Shown here in pieces: positions 10,099 to 23,347 of a DNA stretch of 48,766 bases. The stretch is from Myxococcota bacterium (GTDB lineage: Bacteria > Myxococcota_A > Polyangia > Polyangiales > Sandaracinaceae). The notes beneath the pieces were generated by a model, which searched no databases, had not been told where the DNA came from, and saw only the letters and a program-made list of their open reading frames with translations. Within the stretch, counting starts at the first letter, position 1, and every line of letters starts with the position of its first letter. The stretch lies in NCBI GenBank assembly GCA_036149055.1, contig JAYZQJ010000077.1, forward strand, positions 1 through 48,766, read 5' to 3'. The position numbers were made by a program, and so were the translations under genes.

Positions 10099-10114
10099 AG
10101 GCACGTTCATTGCT
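10099..10114 (+). promoter_or_regulatory. Sigma54 -24/-12 promoter
   Basis: AGGCACGTTCATTGCT has exact GG-N10-GC spacing with GGCACG and TTGC; lies just downstream of an EBP gene and ~30 bp before RBS/ATG. Confidence 0.82.
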
Positions 10115-10142
10115 CGTCCCCAAATCGAGAGGGGAGCACGAG

Positions 10143-11999
10143 ATGAGCATCAACAAGGGGAGCTGGGTTCTCGCCGCCGCCTGCCTCGCGGCGATGGCGG
10201 GGTGCGCAGGAGACGAGGCCGTGGGCGCGGCGAGCAAGCCGCTCCTGATCGCCACCGACGGGCCGACCACCACCGACACGGCGATCGGGCTGGCCCTCGA
10301 GATCGAGAACGGCGCGAGCCCCCCGCTGCGGGTGCGCGCCGGGCAGAAGTTCTTCCTCGACCAGGTGGACATCCGCGCCTTCGTCACCACCGACGTCGAC
10401 AACCCCTCCCTCGACGCGCTGCGCGCCTCGAGCGACTTCGCGTCGCTGGACTGGCGGGGGCTCGCCCTGGCGGAGAACGAGCCGGTGCTGCTCCCGAACC
10501 CCGACGGGACGTTCACCGACCGCCGCTTCTACCGCGACGCCGCCTGGATGGAGCGGCACAGCCTGATGGTGCTCTGGCAGGTGAACGCCCGCGGCCGGCG
10601 GGTGGGGCGCCCCCTCCTCGTCTCGCTCGGTCAGGATGATCGCCGCCGGCGTCACGACCACTTCTTCATCCGGCGGCTGCGCGGCATCCAGTGGGCCAAC
10701 GACTGCGCGGCGCCCACCGACTGCAGCGGCGCGACGAGCTTCCAGGAGGAGGGGCTGGTCGAGGTCCGCAACGCGCGGAGCACCGCGCAGACCTTCCGCA
10801 TCGCGCCGGAGACGACCGGGCTGCGCCTCTGGTGGAGCGCGCGTCGCGGCGCGCCCTACGAGATCCCGGTCGAGCAGGTGGCCTCGCCGGAGTACGACTA
10901 CAACTTCGACATCGAGCTCGCCGCGGTCACCCCGCCCGGCCCGCATGGCTACTACGAGCCCGGCACCGACGTGACCTTCCGGTTCACGATGACCGACGGC
11001 TCGGGCACCCGCCTGCACCCGGAGGGCTCGATCCCGTCGTACGCGGAGGTCGCCTTCGGCGCGAACACGACCGGCATCCAGTACTACCGCGGCTTCTTCG
11101 ACCAGCCGGCGACCTACTGGCGTCGCAAGCACCGCGAGCGCGGCATGGGCGCGATGATCATCGGGCCCAACCAGGACATCCAGCCGATCCGCACCATCGC
11201 GCCGCTCGAGGCCTTCCTCGGGCCCGACCCGACCATCCCGGTCGGCCTGCCCGATCGCGACGGCGTCTACTCCGAGGCGGCGACCATCCCCGCGTCGGCG
11301 GTGGTCTTCGGCGGGGCGTTCGTCCCCGGCAACACGCCGTGGTTCGAGCCGCAGCCCGACACGATCACCTTCCAGATCCCCGCCGACGTCCAGCCCGGCA
11401 CCTACCGCGTCGCGATCAAGGGCCGCCGCGTCTACCTCGGCCAGGACATCCCGCGGACCACGGTGGTGGAGATCCAGGTCGGCACGACCACGCCCACGTT
11501 CGCCGAGATGACCACCGGCCCCTGCACCAGCTGTCACTCGGACGGCGGCGAGCTCGCGCTGGTCCTGCACGCCAACGACGACCGGGCCGCCTGCGCCGGC
11601 TGCCACGTGCCGCTGGGCTTCGAGCTCGAGGGGCCGGTGTACGTGCGCACGCACTTCATCCACTCCCGGAGCGATCGCTACGACGCGCCGACCCAGGAGT
11701 GCGCGACCTGCCACGTGGACGAGGCGAGCATCCAGCGCACCAGCCAGAGCGCCTGCCTGAGCTGCCACACCAGCTACCCGCCCGATCACGTCGCCGCCTT
11801 CGGCCCGATCGAGAGCATCTACACCGGCGGGCTCGACGCCGGCGCCTTCGAGCAGTGCACGGGCGCCTGCCACACGGAGCACCCCGGCGCCGGCTTCGAC
11901 ACCGACTTCCACGTCGACGAGGACCTCGACGAAGACACGGACGAGGACTTCGACGAGGACACGGACGAGGACTTCGACGAAGACGTCGACGAGGACTGA
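10143..11999 (+). CDS. Multiheme (probably five-heme) c-type cytochrome lipoprotein
   Basis: RBS GAGGGGAG; lipobox MAGC; CTSCH, CAGCH, CATCH, CLSCH and CTGACH clustered at the C-terminus; acidic tail. Confidence 0.85.
   Translation: MSINKGSWVLAAACLAAMAGCAGDEAVGAASKPLLIATDGPTTTDTAIGLALEIENGASPPLRVRAGQKFFLDQVDIRAFVTTDVDNPSLDALRASSDFASLDWRGLALAENEPVLLPNPDGTFTDRRFYRDAAWMERHSLMVLWQVNARGRRVGRPLLVSLGQDDRRRRHDHFFIRRLRGIQWANDCAAPTDCSGATSFQEEGLVEVRNARSTAQTFRIAPETTGLRLWWSARRGAPYEIPVEQVASPEYDYNFDIELAAVTPPGPHGYYEPGTDVTFRFTMTDGSGTRLHPEGSIPSYAEVAFGANTTGIQYYRGFFDQPATYWRRKHRERGMGAMIIGPNQDIQPIRTIAPLEAFLGPDPTIPVGLPDRDGVYSEAATIPASAVVFGGAFVPGNTPWFEPQPDTITFQIPADVQPGTYRVAIKGRRVYLGQDIPRTTVVEIQVGTTTPTFAEMTTGPCTSCHSDGGELALVLHANDDRAACAGCHVPLGFELEGPVYVRTHFIHSRSDRYDAPTQECATCHVDEASIQRTSQSACLSCHTSYPPDHVAAFGPIESIYTGGLDAGAFEQCTGACHTEHPGAGFDTDFHVDEDLDEDTDEDFDEDTDEDFDEDVDED
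11916..11999 (+). repeat. 12-bp tandem repeat x7 (GACGA[G/A]GACnnn) encoding a (DEDx)n tail
   Basis: gacgaggacctc gacgaagacacg gacgaggacttc ... gacgaggactga. Confidence 0.9.
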
Positions 12000-12028
12000 A
12001 CCTTCTCACCTGGAGAGCTTTCGAACCC

Positions 12029-13192
12029 ATGGCCAAGGTCCAACTGAGGAGCGCGCGCACCACCAAGACCGACGTCGACGAGGCGATCGCCGAGCTGATG
12101 GAGCAGCTCGGCGAGGGCGAGCCCCGGCTCGTCACCCTCTTCGCCTCCCGCGACCGCGATCACGGCGCGCTCAACCGGGCGCTCCGGGACCGGCTGCCGA
12201 GCGGGACGCGCCTGATCGGTGCGTCGAGCGCGGCGGAGATCGACCACCGCGGGGTCGGCTTCGGATCGGTCGTGGTGTCCGCGCTCGACGGGGACCTCGA
12301 GGTGGGCGTCGGGCTCGGTGGGGGCCTCAGCGAGGACGCGCTCCGCGCGGGCTCGACCGCGATGAAGAGCGCCTGCGCGCAGCTCGGGACGAGCCCCCGC
12401 GACCTCGACACCCGCACCCACGTCGGGCTGGTGATCGACGACGGGTACAAGAACAAGAAGGAAGAGCTGCTGATGGGCGCGCTCGACCAGAACCAGGGCA
12501 TCCTCCTGGTCGGCGGCGGCGCGAGCTGCGGGGAGATGGATCCCGCCAAGCAGTCGGCGCTCGTGCACGTCGACGGCGAGGTCGCCGAGGACTGCGTGGC
12601 GGTGGCGATGATCCGCACCGACGCGCCCTTCGGGGCGCTCCGTCACCACGCCTACACGCCCACCGACGAGCGGGTGACCATCACCGAGGTGAGTGACGAC
12701 GGCTACCGCGCGCTCACCATCGACGACCGCCCGGCAGCGGAGCGCTACGCCGAGGCGATCGGCGTGTCCGTGGAGGAGCTACCCTTCGGCGCGCCGCGCG
12801 GCTTCTCCGATCGCCCGCTCGCGATGCGGGTCGGTCGCGAGTACTTCATGCGCTCGCCGCTCATGCCGATGCCCGACGGCTCGGTGCTCTTCGCGAACCT
12901 GCTCGAGGAGGGCGCGGAGTACGAGCTGATGAAGCTGGGCGACCAGCCGACGATGATGCGGGAGTTCCTCGAGGAGGAGGTCCCGCGCCGGGTCCGGAGC
13001 CCGCAGGCGGCGCTCTACTTCCACTGCAACGGTCGCCAGTACGTGGCGATGCAGAAGGACGAGGCGGGCGCGCTCTCGAGCACCTTCGCGGCCGGCCCGA
13101 CCTGCGCGGGCTTCAACGTGCAGTTCGAGATCTACTGCGGCTTCCACATCAACACGACGCTCACCGCGCTCGTCTTCGGCTCCGACGAATGA
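12029..13192 (+). CDS. FIST-domain (NosP-like) signal transduction protein
   Basis: ATG at 12029 (MAKVQL); LIGASSAAEI, LVGGGAS, IDDRPAAERY, HCNGR, GF...EI...HINTT. Confidence 0.85.
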   Translation: MAKVQLRSARTTKTDVDEAIAELMEQLGEGEPRLVTLFASRDRDHGALNRALRDRLPSGTRLIGASSAAEIDHRGVGFGSVVVSALDGDLEVGVGLGGGLSEDALRAGSTAMKSACAQLGTSPRDLDTRTHVGLVIDDGYKNKKEELLMGALDQNQGILLVGGGASCGEMDPAKQSALVHVDGEVAEDCVAVAMIRTDAPFGALRHHAYTPTDERVTITEVSDDGYRALTIDDRPAAERYAEAIGVSVEELPFGAPRGFSDRPLAMRVGREYFMRSPLMPMPDGSVLFANLLEEGAEYELMKLGDQPTMMREFLEEEVPRRVRSPQAALYFHCNGRQYVAMQKDEAGALSSTFAAGPTCAGFNVQFEIYCGFHINTTLTALVFGSDE

Positions 13193-15255
13193 GCGAGCTC
13201 GCCGAGGAGAACGAGCGGCTCCAGAAGGAGCTCGCCCGACAGAAGCGTCTCGCGACCCGCGCGCTCGCCAGCTATCAGCAGCGCGCCCTGCAGATGGAGC
13301 TCATCCGTCAGCAGAACGAGGACCTCGATCGCCTCGCCGCCGACCTGGCCCGCGCCAAGCGGGTGGCGGAGGAGCGCGCGCGCGAGGTCGAGGAGGCGGC
13401 CCGGCTGAAGAGCGAGTTCCTCGCCAACTTCAGCCACGAGATCCGCACGCCCCTCAACGGGATCATCGGCTACTGCGACCTGCTCGGGCAGGAGGAGGGC
13501 GAACGGCTCACCGCGCACGGGCGGCGAGACCTCACGACCATCCGCCGGAACGCCAAGACGCTGCTCGCGCTGATCAACGACATCCTGGACCTCTCGAAGA
13601 TCGAGAGCGGCCAGATCGACGTGGTCACCGAGGACGTGAAGCTCCCCGACGTCTTCGAGGAGTGCGCGGCGACGGTGCGCGAGCGGCTGAAGAACAAGGA
13701 CGTGGAGCTCCGCGTGGTCGTCGAGGACGGCGCCGACGTCGCGCGCACCGACGGGCTCAAGCTCCGCCAGATCCTGCTCAACCTGCTCACGAACGCGGTG
13801 AAGTTCACCGAGCTGGGCGAGATCCACGCGCGCGCCCGCCGGGCCGGCGACGACCTCGAGATCGTGGTGGAGGACACCGGCGTGGGCATCCCGCCCGAGC
13901 AGCTCGAGAGCATCTTCGAGAAGTTCCGGCAGGTGGACGGCTCCTTCACGCGCACCGCCGGGGGCACCGGGCTCGGCCTCGCGATCGTGCGCGAGCTGAC
14001 GCGGCTGCTCGGGGGGCGCGTGGAGGTCGAGAGCCTGCTCGGGCGGGGCACGACCTTCCGCGTCAGCCTGCCCGGCGTGCTCCGGGAGACCGAGCGGCCG
14101 GCGCGGCGCGAGGAGACGGGCTCGGAGCCGACCCTGCGCGGCAGCGGAGAGACCCACGTGCTGCTCGTCGACGACGACCCGCTGATCCAGGCGCTGGTGC
14201 GCTCGCGGCTCGGCGCCGACGGCATGAAGGTCACCACCGCGATCGACGGCGCGGAGGGGCTGCGCCTGATGCGCACCGCGTCTCCCGACGTCGTCATCCT
14301 CGACATCCGCATGCCGAAGCTCGACGGCTGGTCGGTGCTCTCGGCGATGAAGAGCGACGCGGAGCTCGCGCGCATCCCGGTGATCATCCTCTCGGTGGAG
14401 GAGGAGCGCGGGCGCGGGTTCTCGCTCGGCGCCTTCGAGTACCTCGTGAAGCCGGTGGAGCCGGACCGCCTGGTCAGCGTGATCTCGAGCGCGATCTCGC
14501 CGACCCAGGGCGAGGTGCTGGTGGTCGACGACGACGCCGACACCCGCGAGCTCGTGCAGCGCCGGCTGCGCGCGGAGGGCTTCGACGTCTCGCACGCCGC
14601 GACCGGCGAGGACGCGCTGCTCCGGATGCGGGTCTCGCCTCCGTCGCTGATGGTGCTCGACCTGGTGATGCCGGGCGTCGACGGCTTCGAGGTCCTCTCG
14701 CGGATCCGCGCCGCCGGGCACGAGTTCCCGGTGGTGGTGCTGACGGGCAAGGAGCTCGACGACACCGACCGGGTGCGGCTGCGCGAGGGGCTCGCGCGGG
14801 TCATCCAGAAACACGGCCGCTCGATCGAGGAGGTGGTGGACGAGGCGAAGCGCTTCGTGACCCGCCGCCGGGAGCTCCACGCGGCCCGGGTGCCGCGGGT
14901 GCTCTACGTCGAGGACGTGGCGCAGAACCGCGACATCGTGCGGCGCTACCTGCGCGGCGTCGTGGAGCTCCTCGAGGCCGAGGACGGAGAAGAAGGCGTC
15001 GACGTCGCACGCCGGGAGCAGCCGGATCTGATCCTGATGGATCTGAGCCTGCCGCGAATGGACGGCTGGACCGCGACCCGGACGCTGCGGGGCGACGCAG
15101 CGACCGGGGCGATCCCGGTGGTGGCGTTGACCGCGCATGCGTCCGCGGAGGACCGCGAGCGTGCGCTGGGGGCGGGGTGTTCCGACTACCTGACGAAGCC
15201 CGTGGAGCGAGGTCAGCTCGTCCGGGCCATCCGGAAGAACCTCAACCGAACGTAG
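13189..15255 (+). CDS. Cytoplasmic hybrid histidine kinase with three receiver domains
   Basis: FSHEIRTPLN H-box, NAVKFT, DTGVGI, GTGLGL; three REC domains each with the phospho-Asp; no TM or sensor domain. Confidence 0.93.
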   Translation: MSELAEENERLQKELARQKRLATRALASYQQRALQMELIRQQNEDLDRLAADLARAKRVAEERAREVEEAARLKSEFLANFSHEIRTPLNGIIGYCDLLGQEEGERLTAHGRRDLTTIRRNAKTLLALINDILDLSKIESGQIDVVTEDVKLPDVFEECAATVRERLKNKDVELRVVVEDGADVARTDGLKLRQILLNLLTNAVKFTELGEIHARARRAGDDLEIVVEDTGVGIPPEQLESIFEKFRQVDGSFTRTAGGTGLGLAIVRELTRLLGGRVEVESLLGRGTTFRVSLPGVLRETERPARREETGSEPTLRGSGETHVLLVDDDPLIQALVRSRLGADGMKVTTAIDGAEGLRLMRTASPDVVILDIRMPKLDGWSVLSAMKSDAELARIPVIILSVEEERGRGFSLGAFEYLVKPVEPDRLVSVISSAISPTQGEVLVVDDDADTRELVQRRLRAEGFDVSHAATGEDALLRMRVSPPSLMVLDLVMPGVDGFEVLSRIRAAGHEFPVVVLTGKELDDTDRVRLREGLARVIQKHGRSIEEVVDEAKRFVTRRRELHAARVPRVLYVEDVAQNRDIVRRYLRGVVELLEAEDGEEGVDVARREQPDLILMDLSLPRMDGWTATRTLRGDAATGAIPVVALTAHASAEDRERALGAGCSDYLTKPVERGQLVRAIRKNLNRT

Positions 15256-15265
15256 GCAAACTTCG

Positions 15266-15637
15266 ATGGAAAACTCTCTTCGCCTGCTCGTGGTCGATGA
15301 CGACGAGGAGCATCTGGAGCTCGTGCGCCGGCTCCTGTCCGCGTACCAGTTCGAGGTGCGCACGACCTCCTCGCCGATCGGGGTGTCCAACCTCGTCCGC
15401 GAGTTCCTCCCCAACGTCATCCTGATCGACGTCAACCAGCCCGCCCTCAGCGGCGACCGCATCCTCACCCTGGTCCGCCGCAACGCGAAGTCGGCGGCCA
15501 AGCTGGTGCTCTTCTCCTCGGCGGACCCGGAGCGCCTGCGTCAGCTCGCGCGATCGGTGGAGGCCGACGGCTGGATCCCCAAAGGGCTGGCGCCGCGTGA
15601 GCTCGCCGACCAGCTCCGGAGGGTCTGCGCCACCTGA
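15266..15637 (+). CDS. Single-domain response regulator
   Basis: LVVDDD, ILIDVNQP, FSS, IPKG. Confidence 0.88.
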   Translation: MENSLRLLVVDDDEEHLELVRRLLSAYQFEVRTTSSPIGVSNLVREFLPNVILIDVNQPALSGDRILTLVRRNAKSAAKLVLFSSADPERLRQLARSVEADGWIPKGLAPRELADQLRRVCAT

Positions 15638-15655
15638 GCTCGACCGGAGGTACCC

Positions 15656-17425
15656 ATGGCTCGAAGCGTCACCGATCCCCTCTCGATCGCGTGCGCCGAC
15701 GCGCTCCTGCGCGTGTGGCCACGCCTCTACGACGAAGACCCGCCCGACCTCGCGCTCGCCTGGATCGAGCGCGCGGTGGCCTCGCCGCCCGAGGGCTGGC
15801 GCTCGCTCGTCTCCGACGACCACACCCCGGTCGAGCTCTCGATCGCCTCCGGCCCGGAGGGGGAGAGCCTGCGCCTGCTCGTCGAGGCGCAGGCCGACGA
15901 GGCGACCACCCCGGCGCAGATGGCCGCCGCGCTCTCGCTCCAGCGCTGGGCCTGCGAGCGGCTCGGCGCGCGCGGGGAGCGGCTCGACGCGATCGCGCCG
16001 TGGCTGCTCCCGGACGGACACGCCGGCCGCTTCGGGCTTTGGCACGCGGCGGTCTTCCGTCCGGGCGGCGGGATCGACCTCAAGGCCTACTTCGATCCGG
16101 CGGCCCGGGGAGCGTCCCGCGCGGCCGAGACGGTGGAGCGCTCCCTCGAGGCGCTCGGACTCCAGCGCGCCTGGCCCGCGGTGGCGGCGCTGGCGGAGCG
16201 AGGGCCGGCCCTCGATCGGCTGGGGTTCTTCTCCCTCGACCTGGTGGAGCCGGAGCGGGCCCGCACCAAGGTCTACGTCTCGAAGCACCGGGCCAGCGTC
16301 GCCGAGCTCCGCGCGGCGGCGAGGCTCGCGCGTCACGGCGACGAGGACGCGCTGGTCGCCCACCTCGAGGCCACCGTCGGCGCCCGCGAGGGCTTCCTGC
16401 CGGCGTCGCTCCCGGTGGTCACCTGCCTCGACTTCGCGGGCGACGATCCCACCCCGCAGCACCTCACCGTGCACGTGCCCGTCCGCGCCTACGCCCCGGA
16501 CGACGCGGCGGCGATGGATCGCGCGCGCGCGGCGCTCCGGGCGGCCGGCCTCGCGCCTCGCCGGACCGAGGAGGGCGTCGCCGCCTTCGCCCGCCGCGAG
16601 CTCGACGCCGGCTCCGGCATGATCCCTTACGTCTCCCATCGCAGCGAGGCCGGCGGCGGGCGGGTGACCGTCTACCTCTCCCTCGAGGCCCGCGAGGTCG
16701 CCGCGCCCCACGCCGGCGCGCGGGCGGTCGAGCGCCGCCCCGCGTCGAGCGCCTCGGTGGAGGCGACGATCGAGGCCCTCGCCGCGGCGCCGATCGCGCA
16801 TCACCCGTTCCTCCAGCGCCTCGCCCGCGAGCCCCTCGCGCTGGAGCGGCTCGCGCTCGTGCTGCTGAACTTCCAGCTGGCGATCACCCGCGACTTCGCG
16901 CGTCGGCTCGCGCAGACGGTGGCGCGGGTGGACGACGAGGCGGTGCGGTCGATCCTCGCCAAGCAGCTCGACGACGAGCTCGGCCACGGCGACCCGGACG
17001 CGGCGCACCGGCTGCTCTTCGATCGCTTCGTCGAGGGCCTGCGCGACCACGTGCCGGATCCGTTGCCGGAGGGCCACCTCGCGCCGGGGCGGCGGCTCGC
17101 GGAGACGCTGGAGCAACTCTACGTGCGCGAGCCGGAGGGCTGGGTCGGCGTCGGCGCGACCCTGGTGATGGAGGTCTTCGGCCAGCAGGTCGACGCGTTC
17201 CTCGGCGAGCAGTTCCGGCGCCAGAGCGCGCTGCCCGCGTCGGTGCTGGAGTGGCTCACACTGCACGAGGAGCTCGAGCACGACCACGTCGACGAGGTCT
17301 TCACGCTCGCCCGCCGGATCCCGGAGGGCGCGCCGCGGGATCGCGCGCGCGAGGGGGTCGAGGCGCTCGCGACCGCGGGCTGGGCGTTCTTCGACGACAT
17401 GTACCGCGCGGTCTGGCCGTCGTGA
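15656..17425 (+). CDS. Fusion of a tryptophan dimethylallyltransferase-type (DMATS/ABBA) prenyltransferase and a heme-oxygenase-like diiron oxidase (HDO)
   Basis: N-terminus: SDDHTPVELS, LKAYF, FFSLDL, RTKVY, HVPVRAY, RVTVYL as in bacterial IptA/CymD/PriB-type enzymes. C-terminus: HPF, DELGHG...H, E, H..LE.DH diiron ligand pattern. Confidence 0.85.
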   Translation: MARSVTDPLSIACADALLRVWPRLYDEDPPDLALAWIERAVASPPEGWRSLVSDDHTPVELSIASGPEGESLRLLVEAQADEATTPAQMAAALSLQRWACERLGARGERLDAIAPWLLPDGHAGRFGLWHAAVFRPGGGIDLKAYFDPAARGASRAAETVERSLEALGLQRAWPAVAALAERGPALDRLGFFSLDLVEPERARTKVYVSKHRASVAELRAAARLARHGDEDALVAHLEATVGAREGFLPASLPVVTCLDFAGDDPTPQHLTVHVPVRAYAPDDAAAMDRARAALRAAGLAPRRTEEGVAAFARRELDAGSGMIPYVSHRSEAGGGRVTVYLSLEAREVAAPHAGARAVERRPASSASVEATIEALAAAPIAHHPFLQRLAREPLALERLALVLLNFQLAITRDFARRLAQTVARVDDEAVRSILAKQLDDELGHGDPDAAHRLLFDRFVEGLRDHVPDPLPEGHLAPGRRLAETLEQLYVREPEGWVGVGATLVMEVFGQQVDAFLGEQFRRQSALPASVLEWLTLHEELEHDHVDEVFTLARRIPEGAPRDRAREGVEALATAGWAFFDDMYRAVWPS

Positions 17426-18552
17426 TCGACCTGACCTCGCTCCGCGCCCGCTTCCCGCTGCTCGAGGAGCGGCTCTACTGCGCGACGCCGGGGCTCGGGC
17501 CGGTCCTCCGGGAGACCTACGAGGACCTGGAGGCCTATCGGCGCACCTTCGCTCGGCGCAGCCGCGCCCTCGAGGAGTGGGTCGAGCGCTACGAGGCGCT
17601 GCACGGTCTGGTCGAGCGGCTCCTCGAGGCGCCCCCCGGCTCGGTCTTCCTCACCGACACGGCGACCTCGGCCCAGGCCGCCCTCGCCGCCGCGGTGACG
17701 CCCCGCGGCGCGCGCACGCGGATCGTGACCGGCGCGGCCGACTTCAAGTCGAGCCGCTACCTCTGGAGCGCGCAGGAGAGGCGCGGCTTCGACGTGATCG
17801 CGCTCGACGCGCACGGCGACGCCGCCCCGCTGCTCGAGGCCATCGACGAGCGCGTCGCGATCGTCGCGCTCTCCCTCGTGTCCCCGCGCACCGGCGCCCT
17901 GCTGCCCGCCGAGGCGATCGCGGCCCGGTGCCGGGAGGCGGGTGCCACCCTCGTGCTCGACGCCTACCAGGCGGTGGGCGTGGTCCCGGTCGACGTCGGC
18001 GCGCTCGGGGCGGACGTCGTCGTCGGCGGCACCCACAAGTGGCTGCACGGCGGCGGCACGGGGCTCGCGTTCGGCTACGTGGCCCCGGCGCTCTCGGCGC
18101 GGCTCGAGCCCGTCTACCCCGGCTGGCTCGGGCACGCCTCGTTGCATGCCTTCGCCGACCGCTTCGAGCCGCGGGCGGGCGCGCGGCGGCTCGCGCAGGG
18201 CACGCCGGCGATGGAGCCCGTCTACACCGCGCGGGCCGGGCTGGAGCTCGCGCTCGAGGTCGGGGTCGCCGCGCTCCGCGCGCGCAGCCTCGCGCTCACC
18301 GCGCGCCTCCACGAGGGGCTGAGCGCGCGCGGCATCGCGGTGCGCACGCCGGCGGCGCCCGAGCGCCGAGGCGGCATGGTCTGCGTCGACCTCGTCGACG
18401 GGGGCGAGGCGGTCGTGGCGGCCCTCGCCGCGGAGGGGATCGACGTGGACACCCGGGCTGGGGCCGGGGTGCGGGTCGGGCCGCACCCGACGCAGACGGA
18501 GGACGACATGGACCGGGTGGTCGACGCCCTCGCGCGGGCGGTGTCTTCGTGA
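17422..18552 (+). CDS. Class V PLP-dependent enzyme, kynureninase-like
   Basis: GTG start overlapping the upstream stop; LDAYQAVG, GGTHKWLHGGG (PLP Lys), PGWLG, GTP, RRGG. Confidence 0.8.
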   Translation: MIDLTSLRARFPLLEERLYCATPGLGPVLRETYEDLEAYRRTFARRSRALEEWVERYEALHGLVERLLEAPPGSVFLTDTATSAQAALAAAVTPRGARTRIVTGAADFKSSRYLWSAQERRGFDVIALDAHGDAAPLLEAIDERVAIVALSLVSPRTGALLPAEAIAARCREAGATLVLDAYQAVGVVPVDVGALGADVVVGGTHKWLHGGGTGLAFGYVAPALSARLEPVYPGWLGHASLHAFADRFEPRAGARRLAQGTPAMEPVYTARAGLELALEVGVAALRARSLALTARLHEGLSARGIAVRTPAAPERRGGMVCVDLVDGGEAVVAALAAEGIDVDTRAGAGVRVGPHPTQTEDDMDRVVDALARAVSS

Positions 18553-19595
18553 CCGATCCCCTCGACGCGTTCGACGCGAGCCTCGCGCCGCTCGCCAGCG
18601 CGTACCTGCCGGGCGCGCTCGTCGCCGCGGCGGTCGAGCTGGGGCTCTTCGAGCGGCTCACCGCGCCCGCCGCGCCCGAGGAGGTCGCCGCGTCGGTCGG
18701 CGCCTCGGTCGAGGGCACCGCGCGCATGCTGCGGGCGCTGGCCGCGCTCGGGGTGGTTCGCCACGCGGGCGAGGGGCGGTTCGACTGCCCGCACCACGAG
18801 GCGCTCCGCGCCGATCGCCCGGAGAGCGTGGGCGCGCTCTTCCTCCACCATCACCGGCACGTGGCCCCGCTCTTCGCCCGGCTCGCCGACAGCGTCCGGA
18901 CCGGCGCGCCCCAGCACGGGGCCTGGCGCTTCGCGTCCGCCCCGCCCGCGCCCACCGCCTACGAGGAGCTGACCCGGCACCCGGAGGAGGTGGCGCTGTT
19001 CCTGCGAGCGATGGATCGCGACGGGCGCGGGGTGGGCGAGCGGATCGCCTCGGCGGTCGATCTCCGCGGCTGCGACCGGCTGCTCGATCTCGGCGGGGGA
19101 GGGGGCGCGGTCGCGCGCGGCCTGCTCCGCGCGGTCCCGGGGCTGGTCGTGGAGAGCGTGGACCTCGGGCCGGCCTGCGCCTACGCGAGGGCCCGGAGCG
19201 AGGCCCAGGGGCTCGCCGGCCGGCATCGCCTCTTCGAGCGCGACCTGAGGCGGCCGCTCGATCTCGAGCCCGCGCCCTGCGTGCTGCTCTCGGCCGTGCT
19301 CGCCGACTTCCCGGCCCCGGAGCGCGCGCTCGTCATGCGCCACGCGGCGGACTGCGTGGCCGAGGGCGGCACCCTGCTGATCAGCGAGCGGCTCCTGCAC
19401 GACGATCGCTCGGGGCCGGTCGGCGCGGCGATGCTCTCGCTCCTGACCTTCGCGGCGTTCGGCGGCGATCAGCTGAGCGCCGACGACGCCTGCGCGCTCC
19501 TCGCGCAGGTGGGTTTCGGGGTGGTCGCCCTCTGCTCCGCGCAGGACGGAGAGCGCGATCTCGTGGTCGCCGAGCGGGTCAGGCCCGCTCGATGA
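18549..19595 (+). CDS. SAM-dependent methyltransferase (Methyltransf_2 with dimerisation domain)
   Basis: AAVELGLF winged-helix N-terminus; LLDLGGGGG; LSAVLAD; GGTLLISE. Confidence 0.87.
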   Translation: MTDPLDAFDASLAPLASAYLPGALVAAAVELGLFERLTAPAAPEEVAASVGASVEGTARMLRALAALGVVRHAGEGRFDCPHHEALRADRPESVGALFLHHHRHVAPLFARLADSVRTGAPQHGAWRFASAPPAPTAYEELTRHPEEVALFLRAMDRDGRGVGERIASAVDLRGCDRLLDLGGGGGAVARGLLRAVPGLVVESVDLGPACAYARARSEAQGLAGRHRLFERDLRRPLDLEPAPCVLLSAVLADFPAPERALVMRHAADCVAEGGTLLISERLLHDDRSGPVGAAMLSLLTFAAFGGDQLSADDACALLAQVGFGVVALCSAQDGERDLVVAERVRPAR

Positions 19596-20748
19596 CCAGC
19601 GCGGTGGCGACCCCGGCCCCGCCGCAGATCGAGACGACCGCGCGTCGCTCGCCCCGGGCCTCGAGGGCGTCGAGCGCGGTCGCGACCAGCACCCCGCCGG
19701 TCGCGCCGAGGGGGTGCCCCATCGCGATGGCTCCGCCGAGCACGTTGAGGCGCGCGTGGTCCACCTCGAGCGCGCGCGAGAAGTGCTCCGGCACCACCGC
19801 GAACGACTCGTTGACCTCGTAGACGTCGACGTCGCCGGCCTCGAGGCCCGCCCGCGCCAGCGCCTTCCGGGTGGCCTCCACGTTGCCGTGCAGCATCAGC
19901 GTCGGCTCCACCGCGGCGTGCGCCCACGCGCGGACGAGGCCCCGGGGCGCGCGGCCGAGCCTCTCGAGCGCCGCGTCGTCGGCCACGAGGAGCGCCGACG
20001 CGCCGTCGGCCAGCCCCGGCGCGCTGCGCGCGTGATGCACCGGCGCGACCTCCACCCCGGGGTAGCGCGCGGCGATCCGGCGGCGGGCGTCGGCGTCGAG
20101 CAGGTCCCCGAAGGCGCCGGGCCGGGCGCTCACCTCGTCGAGCGTCAGGCCGTCGCGGATGAGCGCGTCGTGCGCGAGCCCCGCCGCCGGGACCAGGCTC
20201 CGCGCGAACGCGCCGCCGTCGCGCGCGGCGGCCGCCCGGGCGTGGGACCGCACGGCGAGGGCGTCGAGGGCCGCGCGCTCGATGCCCGCCTCGGCGGCCA
20301 GCAGGTCGGCCGCGACCGCCATGTGCACGAAGCCGGTCGCCTCGGCCACCTCGGGGTCGAAGCACCAGGGACCCCGGTCGGCGAACATCGGCACCCGGCT
20401 CAGCGACTCCACGCCGCCGGCGACGATCAGGGACTCCATCGGGGACGAGACGCGCGCCGCCGCGGTGGCGATGGCGTCGAGGCCGCTCGCGCAGAAGCGG
20501 CTCACCGTGGCCCCGCCGCCCTCGAGGCCGGCGAGCAGCGCGGCCATCCGGGCGACGTCCGTGCCCTGCTCTCCGGTCGGCATCGCGCAGCCGACGATCA
20601 CGTCGTCCACCGCCCCGTGCCCGGTCCGCTCGCGCAGCGCGCGCAGCAGATCGGCGAGCAGCCGCGTCGGCGGCACCCCGGACAGCTCCCCGCCCTCGCG
20701 GCCGCGCCCCCGGGGCGTGCGCACCGCGTCGACGATCCAGGCGGTCAC
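19579..20748 (-). CDS. Acetyl-CoA C-acyltransferase (thiolase)
   Basis: DAVRTPRG, RFCASG, GGVES, EVNESF, GHPLGATG, ICGGAG. Confidence 0.9.
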   Translation of the reverse strand: MTAWIVDAVRTPRGRGREGGELSGVPPTRLLADLLRALRERTGHGAVDDVIVGCAMPTGEQGTDVARMAALLAGLEGGGATVSRFCASGLDAIATAAARVSSPMESLIVAGGVESLSRVPMFADRGPWCFDPEVAEATGFVHMAVAADLLAAEAGIERAALDALAVRSHARAAAARDGGAFARSLVPAAGLAHDALIRDGLTLDEVSARPGAFGDLLDADARRRIAARYPGVEVAPVHHARSAPGLADGASALLVADDAALERLGRAPRGLVRAWAHAAVEPTLMLHGNVEATRKALARAGLEAGDVDVYEVNESFAVVPEHFSRALEVDHARLNVLGGAIAMGHPLGATGGVLVATALDALEARGERRAVVSICGGAGVATALVIERA

Positions 20749-21968
20749 AGCCCGACGACGAAGCTGACGGTGGTGGTGGCGCTGCCCCCGAGGTTGAGGG
20801 TCTGCGCGCGCCGCGCGCCCTCGACCTGGATCTCGCCCGCCTCGCCCCGCACCTGGCGCGCGCCGTCGAGCAGCATGCGGACGCCGGTCGCGCCGACCGG
20901 GTGGCCGAGGCCGATCAGCCCTCCGCTCGGGTTCATCGGCAGCGCCCCGCCGCGCTCGAAGAGCCCGGCCTCGAGGGGTCGGAACGCCTCGCCCGGCTCG
21001 GCGAGCCCGAGGTGATCGACGATCGCGTAGCCGGTGATCGAGAAGCAGTCGTGCACCTCGAGGAGGTCGGCGTCCCGCGCGCCCTGCATGCCGGCGCGGC
21101 GCCAGGCGTCCTCGAGCGTCTGGCGGAGGTGGGGGAAGACCCAGCGGCCGCCGCGGCTCGCCCGGAGCTTGTCCTCGAGCGCCATCGGCGCGGTGCGGTG
21201 GCCCCAGCCGAGGATGCGCGGGACGGCGTCGAGGGAGACGCCCCGGCGGTCGGCCCACGCCCTCGCGCCCCGCTCGCTCGCGAGCACGACCGCGGCCGCT
21301 CCGTCGGTGATGCGCCCGCAGTCCTGGCGGCGGAGCCGGCCCTCGACCACCGCGTTGGCCTCGTCGTCCTCGGCGTACATCGCGTCGCTCAGCCGCCAGC
21401 CGCGGGTCTGGGCGACCGGGTTGCGCTGCGCGTTCTCGAGGTCGATGCGCGAGACGAGCGCGAGGTGGTCGCGGTCGAGGCCGTAGCGGGCGTCGTACTC
21501 GTCGGCGACGCGGCTGAAGAGCGACGGCCAGACGTACTTCGCGTCCTCGGCCTCGCGGCCCGTCCAGGCGGCGCAGCCCAGGTAGTCGGCCGCGACGTCG
21601 CCGGCCACGTTGCGCATCTGCTCCACGCCGACCACGAGGACGAGGTCGTAGCGGCCGGCCTCGATCTCGGCGGTCGCGGCGAGGGTGGCGACGCTGCCCG
21701 AGGCGCACGCGGCCTCGTGACGCGCCGTGGGGAGGCCCGCGAGGTCGTCGTGCAGGCTGGCGAGCACGCCCCCGAGCTGGCCCTGACGGCAGAAGAGCTC
21801 GGCGGTGAAGTTGCCGACGTGCGCCGCGTCGAGCTCGCCCGGCGCCACGCCGGTGGCCTCCAGGGCGCCCTGCACCGCGTCGCGCATGATCGCGTCGACG
21901 CCGAGCCCCTCGCGGCTGTAGTTGCGACCGAAGTCGGTCTGGGATCCGCCGAGCACGAAGACGGTCAC
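20745..21968 (-). CDS. SCP2-type thiolase-like protein
   Basis: EAACASG, DGAAA, EVHDCF, NPSGG, GHPVGATG, NLGG. Confidence 0.88.
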   Translation of the reverse strand: MTVFVLGGSQTDFGRNYSREGLGVDAIMRDAVQGALEATGVAPGELDAAHVGNFTAELFCRQGQLGGVLASLHDDLAGLPTARHEAACASGSVATLAATAEIEAGRYDLVLVVGVEQMRNVAGDVAADYLGCAAWTGREAEDAKYVWPSLFSRVADEYDARYGLDRDHLALVSRIDLENAQRNPVAQTRGWRLSDAMYAEDDEANAVVEGRLRRQDCGRITDGAAAVVLASERGARAWADRRGVSLDAVPRILGWGHRTAPMALEDKLRASRGGRWVFPHLRQTLEDAWRRAGMQGARDADLLEVHDCFSITGYAIVDHLGLAEPGEAFRPLEAGLFERGGALPMNPSGGLIGLGHPVGATGVRMLLDGARQVRGEAGEIQVEGARRAQTLNLGGSATTTVSFVVGL

Positions 21969-23347
21969 AGCGAGCCTCCCTCGACCCAGGTGGCGTGGAA
22001 GCCGAGGGGCACGCGCTGCGGGATGGCCGCCCTGGCGCGCGGGCCCTCGTCGAGCGCGCGCGCGTCGTAGATCCACAGCTCGGAGGCGTCCCGGGCGGTG
22101 TCGTGCACGAAGGTCAGGAGGTAGCCGTCGTCCTCCGCCGCGGATCCCTCGCGCGGGGCGAAGGGCGCCTCGCTCCCGTAGACCCCGGGGCCGAAGGCGT
22201 GACGCGCCACCTCGCCCTCCGGGCCGTACTTCACGACGCCGTCGAAGAAGAGCGTGCGCGCCTCGGGGATGGTCATGTGGTAGCTGTAACGCGACTTGCG
22301 TCCGGCCACCCGGGCGTCGATCGACGGGAACTCGGCGCTGCGGTCGTCGAGCGCCTCCTCGGTGCACGCGCCGGTCTCGAGGTCGAAGCGCCAGCGGTGC
22401 AGCCGCGCGGTCAGGCGCAGGTTCGCGAGCGCCCGGGCGAGGGGGCCGTCGTCGGGCCGCGGCGCGGGGATCGGGTCGTCGCAGCGGCAGCCGACCATGA
22501 CGATGGCGCCGTCCTCCTCCCAGGCGTTGACCGAGTGGTAGATGTAGCAGGGCTCCGCCTCGAACCAGCGGACCTCGCCGCCGCGCCTCGGCACGACGCC
22601 GAAGCGGGCCGGCACGTCGCGGTGGTAGTCGACCATCCACTTGCGATGCTTCAGCGCCTCCGGGCGGAACCACACCGGGAGATCCATCAGGATCGCGTAG
22701 CGCTCGGTGAAGGCCATGTCGTGCGGGAGCCGCGGCCCGGGCAGCTCGATCTCGGTCTGGTGCACGAGCCGGCCGCCCGCGTCGACCACGCCGTAGCGCA
22801 TGAACGGAGGCACCGGCCCGTAGTCGAACCAGAGCAGCTCGCCGCTCGCGGGATCGACCTTGGCGTGCGCCGACAGCCGGGCCGGGCGGTCCCCGCCGAA
22901 GGTGTGCGCGCCGCGGCTCTCGAGGGTCGAGGGATCCACCCGGTGCGCGCCGCCGCAGATGTACCAGAGCGTCAGCAGCTCGCCGCCGTGGAAGAGCACG
23001 TCGGTGTTGCCGGTGTCGCGGTAGGGCTGCCCCTTCGGGTTCTCCCGCGTGCTCTCCATGAGCCCGCGCCAGAGCGGCCGGCCCGCCTCGTCCTCCATCC
23101 GGGTGGCCGCCGTGCGGACGTAGCGGTTGCGGTAGCGCAGCGCGCCGTCCTCGACGTGCACCGCGTGCAGCATGCCGTCCCCGTCGAACCAGTGATGCGC
23201 GCCGAGCGGCGCCCGCTTCGGGTTGGGGCCGTTGCGCACGTAGGCGCCGAAGAGATCGCGCGGGACCTCGCCCTCGATGACGTCGAGCGCGACGTCGATC
23301 TCGGTCGACACCGGCGCGTAGGGACCGCTCAGGTACGGATTGTCCAC
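21965..23347 (-). CDS. Carotenoid/stilbenoid cleavage dioxygenase (RPE65 family)
   Basis: RNGPNP, HWFDGDGM, SAHAKVD, HDM, YHSVNAWE, EFP, EAPF, GFHATW (four Fe-binding His). Confidence 0.93.
   Translation of the reverse strand: MDNPYLSGPYAPVSTEIDVALDVIEGEVPRDLFGAYVRNGPNPKRAPLGAHHWFDGDGMLHAVHVEDGALRYRNRYVRTAATRMEDEAGRPLWRGLMESTRENPKGQPYRDTGNTDVLFHGGELLTLWYICGGAHRVDPSTLESRGAHTFGGDRPARLSAHAKVDPASGELLWFDYGPVPPFMRYGVVDAGGRLVHQTEIELPGPRLPHDMAFTERYAILMDLPVWFRPEALKHRKWMVDYHRDVPARFGVVPRRGGEVRWFEAEPCYIYHSVNAWEEDGAIVMVGCRCDDPIPAPRPDDGPLARALANLRLTARLHRWRFDLETGACTEEALDDRSAEFPSIDARVAGRKSRYSYHMTIPEARTLFFDGVVKYGPEGEVARHAFGPGVYGSEAPFAPREGSAAEDDGYLLTFVHDTARDASELWIYDARALDEGPRARAAIPQRVPLGFHATWVEGGSL

Follow-up and report, generated by a model that had tools for sequence, protein, structure and literature searches.

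Two kinds of actinomycete prenyl-indole cluster have been described: type A, in which the tryptophan prenyltransferase IptA is paired with a tryptophanase, and type B, in which SCO7467 is paired with the flavin-dependent monooxygenase (FMO) SCO7468. Both are fixed to a sensor-kinase cassette, the conservon (PMC3617294; this and other papers given by PMC number are cited from excerpts). Heme-oxygenase-like dimetal oxidases (HDOs) form a large family to which about a dozen reactions have been assigned (PMC13108848), and two of its members, AetD and SktA, act on ring-substituted, namely brominated, tryptophan and consume the alpha-amino acid (PMC11869266). The stretch of DNA analyzed here (the window; 48,766 nucleotides, contig JAYZQJ010000077.1 of the Sandaracinaceae assembly GCA_036149055.1) carries a gene, P0001, in which a DMATS-type tryptophan prenyltransferase is fused to an HDO (Table 1; G000 is the genome of the window, and L, G, and P numbers denote loci, genomes, and proteins). 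The fusion lies within a genuine, conserved, and uncharacterized biosynthesis-plus-signaling operon. Both of its domains belong to known families; the architecture and the set of partners appear to be new. A first-pass annotation described the fusion itself, but most of the information is carried by genes it did not mention: a kynureninase-like partner dependent on pyridoxal phosphate (PLP), a methyltransferase, and signaling genes.

Like the actinomycete clusters, the window operon combines an enzyme of the tryptophan prenyltransferase family with a downstream tailoring enzyme and is joined to a sensor kinase. It differs in using a FIST protein and a hybrid kinase instead of the conservon, in its tailoring enzymes (the fused HDO, the kynureninase-like enzyme, and the methyltransferase), and in its hosts, which are myxobacteria and cyanobacteria; the tryptophanase, FMO, and conservon of types A and B are not among the window's operon genes. 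By analogy, the cluster appears to work like the actinomycete prenyl-indole clusters while belonging to neither type. With AetD and SktA, the fusion shares the HDO fold, a six-ligand site, an upstream ring-modifying enzyme, and ring-substituted tryptophan as the likely substrate, but its HDO is of a different subfamily and is accompanied by a PLP enzyme rather than a halogenase. The nearest solved HDOs (BesC, HrmI, CADD, and FlcD) have only 14-19% structural identity to the fusion HDO; their substrates are lysine derivatives, protein tyrosine, or oxime acids, and they all lack a fused prenyltransferase. The product of BesC, too, passes to a PLP enzyme (BesB). The kynurenine pathway (kynA/kynB/kynU) likewise includes a kynureninase, but the window cluster lacks a heme dioxygenase and a formamidase. 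Actinomycin and pyrrolobenzodiazepine clusters carry sets of tryptophan 2,3-dioxygenase (TDO), kynureninase, and methyltransferase; the kynureninase-like and Methyltransf_2 enzymes are common to these and the window, whereas in the window it is the prenyltransferase-HDO that precedes the kynureninase-like gene. Modules of the NosP-NahK type consist of a FIST protein and a hybrid kinase; the window has both a FIST_N/FIST_C protein and a soluble hybrid kinase, but its module is joined to a biosynthetic operon. Within the open-licence literature (main texts, with few subscription journals), neither a DMATS-HDO fusion nor a prenyl-kynurenine route in bacteria was found described, although the architecture may appear in the network figures of papers on HDOs. 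The fused prenyltransferase almost names the substrate of the HDO, and the partner enzyme constrains its product.

The first-pass annotation had claimed one continuous frame of 589 amino acids, with DMATS motifs followed by an HDO ligand set. The gene is indeed a single open frame of 589 codons, ATG to TGA, with a GGAGG motif shortly 5' of its start, and every motif is located in frame: SDDHTPVE at residues 53-60, KAY at 143-145, KVY at 205-207, VPVRAY at 274-279, and RVTVY at 336-340. The two profiles suggested for checking it, Trp_DMAT (residues 45-300, E 4e-15, 56.4 bits against a cut-off of 25) and Haem_oxygenas_2 (PF14518; residues 410-572, E 5e-14), both score above their cut-offs, and an AlphaFold2 model built on 63 homologues (pLDDT 96.1, pTM 0.95) recovers both the ABBA barrel and the HDO fold. 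The annotation had also raised the possibility of an artefactual fusion, which was rejected. Both Pfam domains are present in 67 of 73 homologues (one of them the window's own cluster), 52 loci have both domains, and a 13,462-base contig from run X5, whose study is not flagged as one from which the window might derive, covers 11914-19700 with 39 differing letters and no gap, and so spans the whole operon including the domain junction. Contigs from RNA libraries also span much of the operon (X19: 12391-16549 and 16804-18122), although contigs cannot show transcription. The fusion gene is single-copy in G000.

Scanning of genomes yielded 484 confirmed stretches, from which 79 loci were retained, the 52 two-domain loci being L001-L050, L053, and L076. 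Their hosts include Polyangia, Polyangiaceae, Sandaracinaceae, Kofleriaceae, Archangium, and Nannocystaceae, together with Chamaesiphon and Nostoc among the cyanobacteria; proteins in the 87%-identity cluster of the window's fusion are labelled Sandaracinaceae. Of 32 genomes from the family to which the window belongs, 13 gave a profile match, four of them with the unbroken full-length form. Carriers were few in the phylum samples (4 and 2 of 251, with 7 and 11 candidates scored per genome). Polyangium jinanense (fusion protein WP_272425585.1), Chamaesiphon polymorphus, and Nostoc flagelliforme are cultured hosts among the named records. Some breaks occur in single records and are possibly assembly errors: a fusion over two frames (L024:7974-9793), a split PLP gene (G051 C92), and a PLP gene with an internal stop (G044 C27). 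Separately, P0073-P0075, P0120, and P0124 have an intact HDO half and a prenyltransferase half without a Pfam match or catalytic motif.

The assignment of the N-terminal domain to the bacterial DMATS-type tryptophan prenyltransferase family is well supported. The first 352 residues of the model superpose on 6-DMATS (Z 42.9, root-mean-square deviation (rmsd) 2.2, 339 residues aligned from residue 4), and the closest solved sequence to the fusion protein is the 6-DMATS IptA (E 8e-39), one of nine matches at E <=1, all of them prenyltransferases. Foldseek with the fusion model likewise returned only prenyltransferases among the matches listed. Aligned to IptA, residues E60, R73, Y145, R203, K205, Y207, and Y340 are invariant in all 63 fusions of the alignment from which the conservation counts for the fusion are taken; presumably the Glu binds the indole and the Arg, Lys, and Tyr residues bind the diphosphate. 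The equivalog profile TIGR03429 scores 99.1 bits on the fusion, under its cut-off of 163.85. The nearest structures (IptA, 6-DMATS, and PriB) and the H273/Y325 pattern suggest that prenylation would occur at C6.

The C-terminal domain carries the ligand set that the first-pass annotation had proposed, and all six residues (E441, H451, E506, H537, E541, and H544) are invariant in 63 of 63 fusions, which fits the three His and three carboxylates that HDOs carry on core helices 1-3, with spacing like that of E124, H134, E190, H218, D222, and H225, the ligands of RohS (PMC13133933). Residues 363-589 of the model superpose best on HrmI (Z 23.9, rmsd 2.6, 220 aligned), followed by CADD (21.6), FlcD (19.1), BesC (19.0), RohS (17.6), UndA (16.9), SznF (15.9), and AetD (15.7), and the HrmI and CADD matches over 209-220 residues recover the seven-helix heme-oxygenase-like fold. 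The best sequence match of an HDO-domain profile is BesC (E 5e-7), and the first-ligand motif, QL[DN][DE]ELG...H, is of the CADD/BesC type. Neither the fusion protein nor the domain profile matched AetD at E 1, whereas the same tool detects true AetD-like proteins of other loci at E 2.5e-7 and 3e-43; on this basis, membership of the AetD/SktA group was rejected. By sequence and model, the domain is BesC/HrmI/CADD-like and is a candidate for Fe/O2-dependent catalysis. The site is of the 3H/3C kind, since no conserved acidic residue lies 26-27 positions before E441 (63 sequences; CADD alignment), where SznF and RohS have the seventh carboxylate of 3H/4C HDOs, a Glu on auxiliary helix 2, and the invariant F414 aligns with a Phe of CADD. 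A 3H/3C site usually means that a ligand is supplied by the substrate (PMC13133933), but HrmI is an exception (PMC13108848). A single-sequence model of the domain was poor (pLDDT 43.5) and was not used, and the ESM Atlas returned only generic family names. A match in Aetokthonos (L051) is a stand-alone 250-residue PF14518 protein among regulatory genes, a context that is not of the AetD type.

That the HDO acts on prenyl-tryptophan is a natural inference from the fusion. Among the reactions that the first-pass annotation had offered for it, ring oxidation fits best; side-chain cleavage and nitrile or oxime formation fit worst, given the lack of an AetD sequence match and AetD's low structural rank. 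The BesC/HrmI/CADD-like character of the domain makes nitrile or skatole chemistry less likely, and chemistry of the AetD/SktA type destroys the alpha-amino acid, which would leave a kynureninase-like partner without a substrate.

This partner is closely tied to the fusion. Of the 52 two-domain loci, 43 have the PLP gene immediately 3' of the fusion (all 10 examined by Pfam, and 33 of 42 by paired genome searches). Three of the remaining nine loci are at contig ends, and six are Chamaesiphon genomes without the PLP gene, in which the fusion runs directly into a kinase of 1800-1950 residues (four of the six listed, two scanned). In one of the loci, DMATS, HDO, and kynureninase-like domains are united in a triple fusion of 996-997 residues (L028:7806-10796; P0087), and none of five genomes with a stand-alone homologue of the fusion HDO has an adjacent PLP gene. 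The best solved relative of the window's PLP enzyme, P0002, is the Pseudomonas fluorescens kynureninase (E 5e-33; by profile, E 4e-45). KYNU_C scores above its cut-off, and the PLP lysine K206, the GW motif G234-W235, and, for the C-terminal Arg, R345 and R351 are invariant in 11 of 11 fusion-linked PLP enzymes. The P. fluorescens residues D132, H204, and Y226, which we take to be important to that enzyme, are replaced in P0002 by S111, Q183, and H205. TDO-linked paralogues lack equivalents of the same three residues. Among the ten nearest paralogue matches (281-333 bits), five lie less than 1 kb behind a TDO gene, two lie behind glycine-cleavage genes, and three are unassigned; a sixth TDO-linked case is in G223. 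Because these paralogues share its "missing" residues, kynureninase activity is probable for the whole subfamily of P0002. The DMATS-HDO occupies the place in gene order that TDO holds in the paralogous operons. Short kynureninase-like genes (about 380 residues) that lack several classical residues stand behind TDO in L100 (3818-6231), L105, L109, L103, and L104, and are probably an unrecognized kynureninase subfamily.

A ring-facing Trp (human W102) and a Thr mark kynurenine-preferring bacterial kynureninases, although the motif is not strictly required (PMC11329768). P0002 keeps the specificity Thr as T261. The Trp is kept in five of five aligned TDO-linked paralogues, whereas all 11 fusion-linked enzymes have Leu, Ile, Met, Val, or Phe there; as would be expected, a smaller residue at this position could leave room for a prenyl group.

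From these components a pathway can be proposed with guarded confidence, somewhat short of an even chance. The N-terminal domain would prenylate L-tryptophan with dimethylallyl diphosphate, probably at C6. The HDO domain, with Fe(II) and O2, would then replace TDO in cleaving the indole C2-C3 bond of prenyl-tryptophan to give N-formyl-prenylkynurenine, a step suggested by context; dioxygenase-type cleavage by an HDO is known for FlcD (PMC13133933). The kynureninase-like enzyme, whether or not the formyl group is lost beforehand, would cut the Cbeta-Cgamma bond to yield prenylanthranilate and alanine, and either of two unrelated methyltransferases, where present, may cap the product. This lipophilic product might serve as a signal, or its synthesis might be controlled, through the neighboring FIST protein, hybrid kinase, and response regulator. 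What speaks most strongly for ring cleavage is the absence of TDO and indoleamine 2,3-dioxygenase (IDO) from some hosts. No TDO match was found in 12 of the 43 genomes with fusion and PLP gene, and eight of the 12, all cyanobacterial, had no IDO match in a search that was positive in G000. If a substrate of the kynurenine type is required by the PLP enzyme in such genomes, that substrate must come from the cluster, whose only oxidase is the HDO. Should this be true, ring cleavage would be a new HDO reaction and would open a route into kynurenine chemistry that does not depend on heme. A fuller version, in which the HDO is a heme-free TDO analogue and the first of its superfamily to cleave indole, and in which the operon makes a prenyl-anthranilate autoinducer read by the FIST protein and hybrid kinase in an undescribed signaling circuit common to myxobacteria and cyanobacteria, is rather unlikely to hold in all its parts.

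Several observations weigh against ring cleavage. The available text of the review PMC13108848 describes no indole-ring-cleaving HDO, and the domain's best structural match, HrmI, is an N-oxygenase while its best sequence match, BesC, is a C-C lyase. TDO is encoded elsewhere in 32 of 52 fusion genomes and in G000, which also has an IDO match (in G000:C288:12754-13344, within an open frame of 1632 codons). Most genomes without TDO are metagenome-assembled genomes of unstated completeness. Searches with PrnB and with one TDO protein, for which there was no positive control, gave no match anywhere, including eight cyanobacterial genomes with fusion and PLP gene. There is no formamidase in the cluster, and no KynB-type cyclase/formamidase was found in G000. 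P0002 itself scores 77.7 bits on the kynureninase equivalog TIGR01814, under the cut-off of 246.4, and the kynureninase role of its TDO-linked paralogues is read from sequence and gene order. The alignment at the ring-facing Trp lies in a loop, and hidden Markov model alignments to distant enzymes place S47/R48 there rather than L50; P0002 has no Trp in either register. Nor is the coupling of fusion and PLP enzyme obligatory, since the six Chamaesiphon genomes keep the fusion without a PLP gene, and in G338 a fusion-type PLP gene stands by itself next to a regulator, neither an HDO nor a DMATS having been matched in that genome (the latter in a Trp_DMAT search that also missed the known weak fusion of G188 and hence is no proof of absence). 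Decay of the HDO upon loss of the PLP gene was considered and rejected, its ligands being intact in all six of these Chamaesiphon genomes.

The absence of TDO would be accounted for equally well if the HDO hydroxylated prenyl-tryptophan without opening the ring, either at Cbeta or, to form a 3-hydroxy-oxindole, at C2/C3, after which the PLP enzyme performed a retro-aldol cleavage to prenylindole-3-carbaldehyde and glycine, or to prenylisatin and alanine. The cluster would in that case be a non-homologous counterpart of type A. Kynureninases also catalyze retro-aldol reactions, a DMATS-tryptophanase fusion (P0241, 889 residues) occurs among the homologues, and indiacens are 3-formyl compounds. 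Type A clusters yield 6-dimethylallylindole-3-carbaldehyde (PMC3617294), and prenyl indoles (the indiacens) have been reported from Sandaracinus (PMC9306752), the relatives of the window protein being labelled Sandaracinaceae. A link from indiacens to the cluster would be tentative: a search for DMATS-only homologues returned 15 proteins and no named cultured indiacen producer, and two near-complete genomes of the family, G027 and G028, lack this fusion and have a different one. The PLP enzyme, moreover, descends from TDO-linked kynureninase-like proteins rather than from a tryptophanase or threonine aldolase, and we consider this route unlikely.

Attack on the amino-acid side chain, giving a nitrile, an oxime, or skatole-type cleavage, or N-oxygenation of the amine, has precedents in AetD and SktA with their ring-substituted tryptophan substrates (PMC11869266), in SCO7468, which converts 5-prenyl-tryptophan to an aldoxime (PMC3617294), and in the 3H/3C N-oxygenase HrmI (PMC13108848), which tops the structural matches. 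The PLP enzyme would then act earlier, on a side product, or in detoxification, and six genomes do without it. AetD-like HDOs next to or fused with prenyltransferases are, however, readily found in other clusters, with an FMO or FAD-dependent oxidase and without this PLP gene, while the fusion has no such sequence match; three tested genomes with prenyltransferase and AetD-like HDO clusters contained no close member of the fusion-linked PLP family. Side-chain chemistry also leaves unexplained the 43 of 52 linkage to an enzyme that requires an alpha-amino acid, and on balance it seems quite improbable.

The presence of TDO in 32 of 52 genomes and in G000 would suit a division of labor in which host TDO or IDO opens the ring and the HDO only tailors, by desaturating or hydroxylating the prenyl group, hydroxylating the ring, or N-oxygenating the arylamine of prenylanthranilate; HDO desaturases and N-oxygenases are known (PMC13108848, PMC13185094). 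This is hard to reconcile with the 12 fusion-plus-PLP genomes that lack a TDO match, eight of which also lack IDO, and TDO was never inside the cluster in the loci examined, that of G000 being on another contig amid unrelated genes; such a role appears decidedly improbable. It is very unlikely that the HDO is mainly a sensor or switch (for O2, iron, or nitric oxide) that gates prenylation or signals to the kinase, even though signaling genes dominate the operon, stand-alone homologues adjoin histidine kinases or regulators (L051, L052, and L055), and some DMATS fusions have a ligand-less HDO-like tail, since other stand-alone homologues adjoin an aromatic amino-acid hydroxylase and a methyltransferase (L058 and L052), and a pathway is suggested both by the fusion of three enzymes in one protein and by P0010 (DMATS-methyltransferase-HDO, 883 residues), whose two domains have a methyltransferase between them. 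Under most of these readings, as under ring cleavage, an unusual reaction is likely.

Table 1. Features of the fusion operon in the window.
Feature	Position	Strand	Basis or remarks
DMATS-HDO fusion gene, 589 aa (P0001)	15656..17425	+	Frame, Pfam, model, structure comparison
Tryptophan dimethylallyltransferase domain (ABBA barrel), ~residues 1-355	15656..16720	+	Pfam, sequence, structure; H273/Y325 pattern as in 6-DMATS IptA
Heme-oxygenase-like dimetal oxidase domain, ~residues 364-589	16745..17425	+	Ligands E441, H451, E506, H537, E541, H544; F414 in every aligned fusion; lacks a conserved seventh carboxylate
Kynureninase-like class V PLP enzyme with KYNU_C, 376 aa (P0002)	17422..18552	+	4-base overlap with fusion stop; PLP lysine K206
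S-adenosylmethionine-dependent methyltransferase, Methyltransf_2 family, 348 aa (P0003)	18549..19595	+	4-base overlap with PLP gene
Single-domain response regulator, 123 aa	15266..15637	+	18 bases 5' of fusion
Soluble hybrid histidine kinase (HisKA, HATPase, three receiver domains), 688 aa	13189..15255	+	
FIST_N/FIST_C sensory protein, 387 aa	12029..13192	+	Overlaps kinase start
Multi-CxxCH cytochrome c-like protein, signal-peptide-like N terminus	10110..11999	+	Cytochrome_C7 match below cut-off

The seven genes of the operon lie on one strand with overlaps or short gaps between them. The FIST protein, hybrid kinase, and response regulator are linked to the fusion, a linkage that does not imply a direction of effect. 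The FIST family occurs in 18 of 52 loci by rough clustering of raw open reading frames, six of them confirmed by Pfam, and G188, from another family, has an identical FIST-kinase-fusion-PLP order. Only the FIST link was weighed, because kinases beside the fusion would have to be compared with their frequency beside genes taken at random. This fixed FIST-kinase link offers a candidate ligand for the FIST domain and a possible myxobacterial signal, and the cultured hosts make the system testable. Methyltransferases of two unrelated families recur, at least one of the two being present in 24 of 52 loci (raw-frame clustering, with representatives confirmed); SibL is among the PDB matches of P0003 (E 7e-13), although it is not the best. 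The cytochrome c-like protein is multi-heme with an acidic repeated tail, and its family adjoins 22 of the 52 fusion loci. On the minus strand of the window, two thiolases and a carotenoid oxygenase (RPE65 family) are encoded in a convergent block (19579-23347) that is not conserved with the cluster.

Other arrangements of the same parts were also recovered. A Calothrix sp. NIES-4101 plasmid (L056:7407-12042) carries an unfused DMATS and, after it, an HDO that resembles AetD (E 3e-43), an FMO, and a short-chain dehydrogenase/reductase; it mirrors the skt cluster with a prenyltransferase replacing the halogenase, and its product may be a prenyl-skatole or prenyl-indole nitrile. The same family is found in L042, L060-L062, L064, L065, L068, and L077, L056 being the one compared with AetD. 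An independent fusion of DMATS to an AetD-like HDO (E 2.5e-7) lies divergent from a FAD-binding oxidase-like gene in G014 (L089:760-2622, minus strand), and hits of similar length occur in L087, L088, L090, and L091. L084 (1204-3171, G028) and L085 (G027) encode DMATS with an HDO-like tail without metal ligands, again divergent from a FAD-binding oxidase-like gene. Finally, stand-alone homologues of the fusion HDO stand beside a biopterin-dependent aromatic amino-acid hydroxylase in L058 (6184-8666) and L052 (8019-10342), the neighbors including a methyltransferase in Sorangium sp. So ce1128 and a kinase and regulator in L052.

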